Of a stretch of DNA of 64,000 nt, positions 34,501 to 37,500 are shown piece by piece. Source of the stretch: Ruditapes philippinarum (lineage: Eukaryota); assembly GCF_026571515.1 (NCBI RefSeq), contig NW_026865659.1, positions 62,001 through 126,000 on the forward strand, in the 5' to 3' direction. Position numbers: made by a program. Positions within the stretch are counted from its first letter, which is position 1; each line of letters opens with the position of its first letter.

Positions 34501-37500
34501 GTTTCCATTGAAATGTGCACCTAAAGGATATAGACTGTGTGCAATATATTGGCCTGGTCCCTGGTGAGGCAGTAATATTGTTGAATATCTAGTACTTGTA
34601 CCCAATACATGGAACAAATGAGGCTCAAACCTGTATCGTAGCACTGAACAGCGGCATCGTCTTGATGCATCCAGCAAGAACTTCGGTGATAATTTCGGTA
34701 CCAAACACCACGCCCTCTAAACTGCAATCCCACTTGAAAATCGTCGGCATCATTTGATTCACCAACCTTTTCAATCATCATTGGGCATTGTGTGATTGAC
34801 GTCTCATTTCCTTTGCATCTTAATGCATTCAGGTAAAACTTGCCTTCGCCAGCACCGTATGAACCCATCATTAATCTTCGCCCTCCCTTAAATTTCATCT
34901 GTCGACAGATGACATCTGCAGTTTTATCATTAAAGAACGAATATCCGCATATGCTTCCAATCTTTCCGTCTAATACTATTTCTATGCGACCATTGGTATG
35001 TGTAGTTCCATTAACCAATTTGATTTTCATACCTATGTCAAACAAAAATATTATCAACACTACAAAGAACACAGACCAAATATTCAAAAGGAAAACATAA
35101 GTTTGCCTCTCTCTATATTCACTTGTAAACTAAAGGCTTAGTGTTTAAAGTGAACTGTTTCAATATACAATGTATAAATAACAAGTCATAAAATATTTCT
35201 TTTGTATGAAAAATACTCAGTTATTATGTTTGCTGGATATTCTTCCTGATACGGCATTTCTCTCTTTCATGTAATTTCTCATCATTTCTACTGGTCTTTT
35301 GTCCTTTATTTTCAATCCCCATCAGTGTATTGCCATGTGAATCTTGTTTTGGTACAATTCGAAGCACTTCACAATAATTGCAATATGAAGTAGCACTTTT
35401 TACATTTCGTCAATACGCATAACACGGTGTATGCATGTCCAGCTAAAACTATGGATATAGTATGCAGATTTGTTTCGCCAAAATCTTTTTAAAAATGGAC
35501 CTAAGCGTCAGTGCTATTTCTAAAATTGCTGAAACACAGGACTTAGTCTAGGTGATGAATTTTCCCATATCTTTCTTTGATTTCACTGGTCTTGCAATAT
35601 CTCATCAGAGAATTGCTTTTCTCACAATAGACCTGTTGGGTGTCATCTGTAACAAGTTGCCCCATATTTCATCGGAGTGTTGTAACCTTTTCTCCGTCGG
35701 TTTTGGACATCAGTTGCGATAACCGTTGTGTTGAATATTGAAGTCTTAAGTCGATGTTAGTACTTTTGATAAATGTTGCACTTTTAATGATCTCTTTGAA
35801 GACTTGGTCAAACCGACTCTGCAATAGTCATCTTTTTATTTTTTGTGTCCATTACTCTAAAAGGATTAGTCCTTTTCAGCAATTTTAATTGCTTTAAACA
35901 TGATCTTCACTTTTTGGTATGTTATAAATTATAAATGATAGAATATCAATGTAGACCTGAAACCAACGGAAACATTTTAAGAAATTAAAACAAATCTGAG
36001 CACATGTAAAACCGCACGTGACATTTTGCGACATAAATTATTACATCACAGCAAATCTGAAACTCTGAAAGCACTTTCAAAAATTGTGCCCTTATCAAAT
36101 GCGATGCTAAAATAGGAAACGGTTACAAGATAAGATTCTTAAATGGCAAATGAGTTATCCCGAAATACATATTTCTTTATTCTATTCTTTGTTTTGTGGA
36201 TTCAGCCTGAATTTGAAATCTAGTTTTATGGCAACGTTTTATCTAAAGTCAGAAAAAGCTGTTATCTAGTTTTTCTGTATTATGCAAAAAGCAATGTAAG
36301 CTCTGAAAGAATGCTTTGTCTGTTGCATGCCCCTGAAACTGAATTATAGTCTTATCAGTCTGTTAAATTAAATGAATTTGAATTGTTGAACAAATATATC
36401 ATCAAAATTAGTGACGTATATATTATTTCAAATAGATATCTTTCTATATATACCCAGTCATTATAGTATTAACAAAACAGTTGGGCATGCGCAAAAGATT
36501 AGTTTAGTTTAGATGTTAAGATAAACAAAACAATTAAGCAATTACAATTAGAGTAAATACAAAATGACCGTGTATTTATCATTGTTATTTTCTTGTTAGA
36601 AATAACACCGTCACCATATTTGTAAAGGAAAAGAAAAAAATCTGTTCGCCACCAAAATTCTTTTTTTTCTGATGTCATGCATTTTTCCACTAGGATTCCG
36701 TTTCACTTGTTTCATAATCATACCTCGGTTGTAACACTGCACTGCTGCATCTTGCTTGTGTGTCCTACACGTGTAGTAAGTACTTCGCAGAACAAAGTTC
36801 AGACCGTCACGACCATTAAATATAGCTTCTTTGGGCTCGATTTTGATCCCACAATTAAAGATGGAAGACTCATTGCCATCACATCGTAAGTACGGTATCA
36901 TTATTTTCCCCTTTCCTTCTCCAAAATAGCCATTCTGGAGAGAGCGTCCACTTGTATAGCCTAACTGTTTGCAAAGTACATGGGCAGCTTCGTCGTCAAA
37001 CTTAGCAGTCCCACAAACTGTTCCCCATTCTCCGTCGATTGATATCTCTACTCTTCCAGACATTTTGCTTGTACCATTAGCTAATCTTAGTTTGTATCCT
37101 ATTGTGCAAGGTTATTTAATTGCATAACATATTTGAAATTCTCAAAGTTTGCAATGGCCAAATACATTGGTTAACACATAATACAAATAATTTGGCAGTA
37201 TTACGATTACATCATGATCAAAGTATTTCCCAATTATTTCAAAGTAATTTATCGCAGGAAACAAAGAATTTGTTTTTTAATTAAATAAAGAAAAGTCTAT
37301 AATAATTTCTATTAGTTATTTTTTTAAGCTACAAGTACAACGTTGAAGTTTTGAACATTATTATTCTCTTGTCTTCTTTAATATTAACATTGTTTAACAT
37401 GTCAATAATCATGCTACTTGGAATATAAATAATTTACCTTCTTTTTGGTAACAATATACAGCAGGGTCCGTATCAGATTTACATCGGTCTACAGAGCCCC

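Follow-up and report, generated by a model that had tools for sequence, protein, structure and literature searches.

Tandem-duplicated SRCR exons as candidate alternatives for one domain of a 'DMBT1-like' receptor in the clam Ruditapes philippinarum

If an exon encoding a whole domain is duplicated in frame inside a long array of such domains, is the copy read as one more repeat or as an alternative to its neighbor? The question is raised by two adjacent SRCR exons, herein designated D13 and D14, of a gene annotated as 'DMBT1-like' in the clam Ruditapes philippinarum. The gene is located within a stretch of 64,000 nucleotides (nt) of the RefSeq assembly GCF_026571515.1 (contig NW_026865659.1, positions 62,001 to 126,000 of the forward strand), referred to below as the window and numbered from its first base. 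The reading that we favor, by a modest balance of the evidence, is that D13 and D14 are alternative exons, normally used one at a time, of which D13 represents the conserved default and D14 the fast-evolving alternative. Such alternative use is supported, although not proven, by the public annotation.

With a local SRCR profile, a total of 42 SRCR exon pieces were detected in this gene, all on the minus strand and together forming 27 SRCR domains, with D1 at about 59432 and D27 at 18722, 12 of which are encoded by a single exon and 15 of which are split over two exons. As judged from database searches performed exon by exon, the product of the gene is the RefSeq model 'deleted in malignant brain tumors 1 protein-like isoform X2' (P0154, 3006 amino acids [aa]). 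Exact matches in P0154 were found for 40 of the 42 exon peptides, the two others being D14 and the first piece of D1 (D1a), the donor of which was misplaced in the exon model. The precomputed Pfam list for P0154 includes SRCR-type families only, with neither CUB nor ZP. Whereas a DMBT1 orthologue, as commonly defined, is secreted and carries both CUB and ZP, the clam protein ends with a transmembrane segment and a cytoplasmic tail; 'DMBT1-like', as used by RefSeq, refers to nothing more than the SRCR similarity. The features that matter for the argument are as follows, beginning with the gene and then following the direction of transcription through the D13/D14 cluster.

17512..59432, minus strand: mapped part of the 'DMBT1-like' gene, with D1 at the high end; the signal-peptide exon or exons upstream of 59432 are left out.
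Within the open reading frame (ORF) 17512-17976, minus strand: exon encoding both the transmembrane segment and the cytoplasmic tail, located after D27 and containing a hydrophobic segment.
37438..37572, minus strand: exon D12b, phase 1-1, the last constitutive exon before the cluster, with an exact match in P0154.
37099..37437, minus strand: intron D12-D13, 339 nt, ending in an acceptor that scores lowest among the 42 exons.
36724..37098, minus strand: exon D13, 375 nt, phase 1-1, the form of SRCR position 13 that is conserved and that RefSeq isoform X2 includes.
35033..36723, minus strand: intron D13-D14, 1691 nt, with neither an SRCR remnant nor a significant pairing partner.
34631..35032, minus strand: exon D14, 402 nt, phase 1-1, a fast-evolving paralogue of D13, missing from RefSeq isoform X2.
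30682..34630, minus strand: intron D14-D15, 3949 nt, GC about 0.28, in which neither a decayed exon copy nor a tandem array scoring above 88 nor an ORF resembling that of a transposable element (TE) was found.
30526..30681, minus strand: constitutive exon D15a, which comes first after the cluster and in RefSeq isoform X2 follows straight on D13.

The pair had been noticed in a first-pass annotation, made by reading the sequence alone, as two single-domain exons of phase 1-1 with 375 and 402 nt, and both proved to be intact exons of this kind on the minus strand. Each has intact AG and GT boundaries, contains six cysteines and matches Pfam SRCR (PF00530) far above the cut-off of 26.1 bits (D13, E 6.2e-21, 75 bits; D14, E 6.4e-18, 65.4 bits). 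The phase symmetry is present but not distinctive, because 34 of the 42 array exons are likewise of phase 1-1 with a length divisible by three. At the protein level D13 and D14 are 41% identical over 131 columns (BLASTP, E 4e-35), and the alignment places a long insert at the same position in both, in agreement with the first-pass description. The same holds for the motif 'CG...F.D' with one extra residue and for 'DAAVQCY' at the end, each being present in both exons. With respect to the proposed common start 'G.K.KL.NGT', the part 'NGT' is present in both, but 'G.K.KL' is only approximate, D13 having R at the second K. D14 is devoid of the conserved Trp of the 'WG.VC' motif, as are D4, D7, D9 and D19. 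No similarity between D13 and D14 was detected at the DNA level (best E 2.6), indicating that the duplication is old.

Is the pair a genuine tandem duplication within the array? Elsewhere the domains had been described as running in the order A-B-C, with A-A-B-C at D13/D14, and this irregularity was borne out. When the domains were labeled A, B or C with a break at D13/D14, the nearest neighbor was of the same class for 22 of the 27 domains, as compared with 7 of the 27 under a strict period-3 labeling without the register break. Shuffled labels gave 8.5 +/- 2.8 same-class neighbors, and none of 5000 shuffles reached 22. Within-array trees were constructed separately for the N-terminal halves, the C-terminal halves and the 12 single-exon domains, so that no joining of exons was needed. 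D13 and D14 were sisters in each, with support values (Shimodaira-Hasegawa-like approximate likelihood ratio test [SH-aLRT]/ultrafast bootstrap [UFBoot]) of 54.7/94, 84.7/95 and 83/83, respectively. The predicted tandem exon duplication, with D13 and D14 closest to each other, is thus upheld by four trees in which they are sisters, and the duplication itself can be regarded as shown.

The introns within the cluster were also inspected. The two that follow D13 and D14 had been called unusually long, and with 1691 and 3949 nt they are indeed the 5th and 2nd longest of 41. Repeats or transposons as the cause of this length were rejected, because Tandem Repeats Finder (TRF) detected just one 58-nt array in the cluster introns, and no TE-like ORF was found there. 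A decayed third copy of the exon was rejected as well. The SRCR profile gave no match in 30682-34630 and just two in 35033-36723 (E 6.7 and 8.5), and comparison of D13 and D14 with the three cluster introns gave a best E of 1.4 by tblastn and of 0.29 by blastn. The region 30700-34600, in which the first-pass annotation had suggested looking for decayed copies of D13 or D14, contained none.

How is position 13 then occupied in public protein models? In the Ruditapes isoform X2 (P0154), D13 forms residues 1313-1436 and is followed by one junction codon and then by D15a, D14 being skipped, so that the protein contains 26 domains; a D13-only form of the Ruditapes gene is therefore on record. A second protein, P0153, is encoded by a 2996-aa ORF that fills a 9568-nt contig, indicating that it is derived from mRNA. 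Its identity to the Ruditapes protein is 68-93% per domain, and its order at position 13 is D12, D13-type and D15, the same as in Dreissena polymorpha isoform X3 (P0152). Mya arenaria isoform X3 (P0155) shows instead the order D12, D14-type and D15, with no D13, and thus represents a D14-type-only form. Another Mya model (P0001, 'LOW QUALITY PROTEIN', partial) contains a D13-type domain followed by another D14-type domain. P0001 and P0155 are both located on the same 93-Mb contig, and 1127 residues are identical between them in six blocks, indicating that they represent the same Mya gene. Since the two D14-type domains in these models are 61% identical to each other, and P0001 adds the D13-type domain, there must be at least three cluster exons in the Mya gene, one D13-type and two D14-type, of which X3 uses one.

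A representative search ranks by the score summed over many SRCR repeats, which leaves most of the 150 listed proteins uninformative; 5 of them were taken, for which the best stretch covered the whole query. All six full-length proteins (P0152-P0157), including those of the gastropod Babylonia (P0156) and octopus (P0157), contain 26 SRCR domains with one domain at position 13, and P0006, P0009 and P0046 likewise contain one domain there. The layout of 26 SRCR domains plus a transmembrane tail is conserved domain for domain among Dreissena, Mya, Ruditapes, Babylonia and octopus. Use of one copy thus does restore the ancestral layout, in line with the first-pass idea of a restored (ABC)x8.

These models bear directly on the possibility that D13 and D14 are both constitutive, the normal protein having 27 SRCR domains and the D14-less model being minor or erroneous. 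Inclusion of both is what one would expect by default when a domain is duplicated in tandem and in frame within a repeat protein, and P0001 carries both types. Nevertheless, exactly one cluster exon is present in each of four records, D13-type in P0154, P0153 and P0152 and D14-type in P0155, as against two in the low-quality P0001, and the 26-domain layout is conserved out to the gastropod and octopus. Constitutive use of both exons thus appears highly improbable.

The age of the duplication can be read from trees of the position-13 domains, from which P0015 and P0108 were left out, being not collinear there or too short. The D13-type domains of Ruditapes, P0153, Dreissena and Mya formed one clade (99.7/99), and Ruditapes D14 and the two Mya domains formed a D14-type clade (80.3/80). 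Both types were joined with support of 71.8/79, and of 90.4/97 in a second taxon set, in which the single-copy domains of P0009 and P0046 were placed just outside the joint clade (98/92). The position-13 domain of P0006, on a long branch, fell outside the position-13 clade. Because the D13-type and D14-type clades each span Ruditapes and Mya, the duplication predates the Ruditapes-Mya split, and the D14 lineage was duplicated again in Mya.

The two exons have since evolved at different tempos. Between Ruditapes and Mya, the other 25 positions are on average 74.8% identical (minimum 60.2%). D13 is 70% identical between these species, and its identity to the D13-type domains ranges from 70 to 83% when Dreissena and P0153 are considered along with Mya, whereas D14 is only 43% and 32% identical to the two D14-type domains of Mya. 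On these identities D14 is by far the most diverged domain, D13 being conserved like the other domains, and the alternative module evolves three to four times faster than its D13 partner.

Does this divergence mean that D14 has become an unspliced relic in Ruditapes, still used in Mya, with the 26-domain D13 form as the sole product? The omission of D14 from both isoform X2 and the mRNA-derived P0153 would agree with such decay, as would the exceptional divergence of D14 and the loss of its 'WG.VC' Trp. That Trp, however, is absent also from the four other domains named above, and the frame, the six cysteines and the AG/GT boundaries of D14 are all intact. When neutral drift to a D14-like divergence was simulated with substitutions only, an open frame and six cysteines were kept in 2-12 of 3000 runs, even without insertions and deletions, indicating that D14 is maintained as a coding sequence and is not a decaying copy. 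In terms of sequence evolution, this simulation shows purifying selection on the frame and disulfide framework of D14. Together with the ordinary scores of its splice sites and the confident modeling of its core as SRCR, both described below, these observations make the loss of D14 from use in Ruditapes distinctly unlikely.

Splice sites were scored by a leave-out weight matrix constructed from the gene's own splice sites. The acceptor of D13 (37099-37118) was the weakest of the 42, with a score of 1.6 against a median of 6.1 and with 9 pyrimidines in 18 positions. This weakness would ease the skipping of D13, but is only suggestive. The sites of D14 were ordinary, its acceptor ranking 24 and its donor 15 among 42. 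With the donors GTATGA and GTTTGA and with AG acceptors, D13 and D14 are both of the GT-AG type when set against the U12 consensus.

Criteria for the prediction of mutually exclusive exons, as given in the accessible part of PMC5740500, are that the exons be neighboring, similar and of the same frame, with a length difference of at most 60 nt in steps of three. D13 and D14 agree with this description in every respect, their difference being 27 nt. Mutually exclusive use had been proposed in the first-pass annotation, and it gains from the D13-only Ruditapes X2 and the D14-type-only Mya X3; its other half finds no counterpart in Ruditapes, because among the records examined, in which isoform X2 is the Ruditapes model, no Ruditapes model or transcript contained D14.

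Several further observations weigh against one-at-a-time use. The mechanisms listed in the same part of PMC5740500 as enforcing exclusion are frame incompatibility, steric hindrance below 50 bp and U2/U12 incompatibility, and none of these applies to D13/D14, because each exon length is divisible by three, 1691 nt of intron separate the two and both are of the GT-AG type. Transcripts including both exons or neither would stay in frame. Competing intron pairing is no better indicated: one of nine intron-segment pairs exceeded all 40 shuffles (z -2.47), but its best local duplex (-19.6 kcal/mol) was matched or bettered by 18 of 60 shuffles, and the inverted repeats around the cluster are short and AT-rich. 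Segment-pair folding, local duplex prediction and a repeat scan of the cluster introns thus detected no docking/selector pairing, and the label 'Dscam-like' given to the pair earlier finds no support at the level of mechanism. As to the protein records, P0001 holds the D13-type and D14-type domains together, even though it is a low-quality model; the RefSeq isoforms are automated models; and one domain in the protein models of other species is not proof of one genomic exon. A search with the D14 exon against longer proteins gave nothing at E <= 1e-8, which is weak evidence.

The same observations favor D14 as an optional cassette, with D13 present in all or most transcripts and D14 either added (27 domains) or skipped (26 domains). 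The junctions D13-D14-D15 are in frame, both exons being of phase 1-1 and divisible by three; no constraint by steric hindrance, frame, U12 or RNA pairing was found; P0001 holds both types in one model; and many similar neighboring exons are not mutually exclusive according to the accessible part of PMC5740500. On the other hand, Mya X3 carries a D14-type exon without D13, each of the six full-length proteins contains exactly 26 domains, and P0001, partial and of low quality, lacks several exons and runs into intron-like sequence at both cluster junctions. For these reasons the cassette seems to us rather unlikely, although less so than the loss of D14 from use.

What would the exchange of D13 for D14 alter in the protein? 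The SRCR cores of both were modeled by AlphaFold with a predicted local distance difference test score (pLDDT) of 80-96. The mean pLDDT was 80.2 for D13 and 77.5 for D14, and the shared insert was the only low-confidence stretch, with residues 94-107 of D13 and 91-116 of D14 below 50. The best matches of the two models in PDB were the SRCR domains of SCARA5, SCARA1, CD163 and DMBT1 (E 9e-10 and 2.5e-08). From these models the long insert loop would be the obvious candidate for what the swap changes. The earlier suggestion of isoforms that differ in a variable loop is consistent with this, inasmuch as the main difference between D13 and D14 is the loop modeled with low confidence; as for the isoforms themselves, a D14-containing one was not seen for Ruditapes.

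Both variants also depart from the canonical ligand site. D13 carries 'CGTAKFDD' and D14 'CGYSFFND' where the aligned CD163 domains carry 'CDD-xWD', and the acidic pair after the first cysteine, the canonical cation-dependent site of SALSA/MARCO type, is absent from both. In the SRCR8 domain of SALSA/DMBT1, residues D1019 and D1020 coordinate the cations for ligand binding, and mutation of either abolishes the binding, as stated in the accessible part of PMC7043408; these residues presumably correspond to the 'CDD' motif. The absence of the pair would make position 13 a non-canonical SRCR domain. A swap of D13 and D14 may change the ligand specificity of the receptor.

Taking these results together, we propose that the tandem-duplicated exons D13 and D14 would serve as alternatives for SRCR position 13 in a transmembrane receptor with a layout, 26 SRCR domains arranged as (ABC)x8 plus two, that is conserved across molluscs. 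The duplication took place before the split of Ruditapes and Mya, with a further duplication of the D14 lineage in Mya. Mature mRNAs would normally carry one cluster exon, and D14, when spliced in, would substitute for an entire domain in such a way that the SRCR core stays and the main change falls on the long surface loop before the last cysteine pair. That the Ruditapes D14 is spliced in, and in place of D13 rather than beside it, is what we infer from the one-exon records. A more far-reaching proposal, which we put forward as tentative and as more doubtful than the alternative use itself, is that position 13 constitutes a small evolving repertoire module. It would consist of the default D13 and of duplicating D14 types (one in Ruditapes, two in Mya), which diverge fastest under pressure from ligands such as microbes, while one exon per transcript is chosen in a way that follows none of the known rules (frame, steric, U12 or docking/selector).

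Some other features of the window may be mentioned. Its GC content is about 0.28-0.44. Within the SRCR gene, a 45-nt minisatellite of 13.8 copies (46480-47097) is located directly upstream of D5, the first base of which is 46430 in this minus-strand gene. In the gene frame each unit echoes the start of D5 ('..VRLSRGDH..'), indicating that amplification of the acceptor and first codons of D5 has placed a series of look-alike 3' splice sites immediately before the genuine one. RefSeq X2 uses D5 as placed in the exon table, despite these look-alike acceptors upstream. A second minisatellite, of 15 nt and 121 copies (90% matches), occupies 50371-52199 and fills most of the 2.4-kb intron that splits D3; it is the cause of the spike in GC and AT-skew at 50-52 kb. 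The sole run of N in the window (167 bases) lies in the intron between D4b and D5 and touches no exon of the RefSeq model.

Outside the SRCR gene, beyond its 3' end and on the opposite strand, a 655-codon open frame (6651-8618, plus strand) contains a p66 coiled-coil region (P66_CC, E 1.2e-12) together with a zinc finger of the GATA type (E 3.7e-07), and represents a GATAD2/p66-like gene, either as a whole or as one large exon. Several adjacent broken frames at 1592-5952 on the minus strand match the hAT dimerization region (E 2.9e-05), with two weaker matches below the Pfam cut-off, DUF4371 (E 2.1e-07) narrowly so and a zinc finger (E 1.7e-04); being broken and hAT-like, they probably represent a decayed element of the hAT family.

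As to known systems, mutually exclusive exon pairs and clusters have been catalogued (PMC5740500 and PMC9741552). Tandem-duplicated pairs such as 7a/7b of ATE1 resemble D13/D14 in that homologous exons lie next to each other and agree in phase and nearly in length, one of which is present per public isoform, and in that an ancient event has been kept in more than one lineage. Unlike the catalogued pairs, the D13/D14 swap concerns a whole autonomous domain of a repeat array, and D13 and D14 are only 41% identical; inclusion of both or neither keeps the frame, with none of the enforcing mechanisms listed in PMC5740500. Tandem-duplicated alternative exons are of a known kind, and the isoforms themselves are already present in the automated RefSeq annotation. 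A search of the literature on mutually exclusive SRCR exons, on SRCR splicing in bivalves and on DMBT1 in Ruditapes philippinarum gave no published description, and an SRCR swap in a mollusc-wide receptor, with a lineage-specific copy number and an accelerated exon, appears to be undescribed. One receptor, conserved from clams to octopus, appears to exchange a single SRCR module out of 26. If transcripts confirm this, the locus would offer a tractable case of an in-frame domain duplication that turns into an alternative exon instead of an extra repeat, and would suggest that the receptor owes its specificity to the module at position 13.

Human DMBT1, also known as SALSA or gp340, shares with the clam protein a long SRCR array, and the models of D13 and D14 match solved SRCR domains of DMBT1 with a template modeling (TM) score, normalized to the target, of 0.68-0.80. 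Human DMBT1 is secreted and contains CUB and ZP domains, in contrast to the clam protein with its SRCR-type families only, transmembrane segment and cytoplasmic tail. Canonical SRCR domains have 'CDD' after the first cysteine, whereas at this site D13 has Gly-Thr with an extra residue and D14 has Gly-Tyr.

The likeness to arthropod Dscam1 lies in the organization: exons for extracellular recognition domains are tandem-duplicated and used one at a time (in the clam, on the reading favored above), with a copy number that depends on the lineage. The clusters of Dscam1 contain dozens of variants of an Ig fold, each coding for half a domain. The clam cluster differs in having two exons in Ruditapes and at least three in Mya, in the SRCR fold, in a full domain per variant and in that docking/selector complementarity was not found in it. 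Diversification of recognition receptors by splicing is known mainly from arthropod Dscam, and bivalve immunity is usually said to diversify by the expansion of gene families. If the reading of position 13 as a repertoire module holds true, it would represent splicing-based recognition diversity in a lophotrochozoan, built on an SRCR rather than an Ig scaffold.

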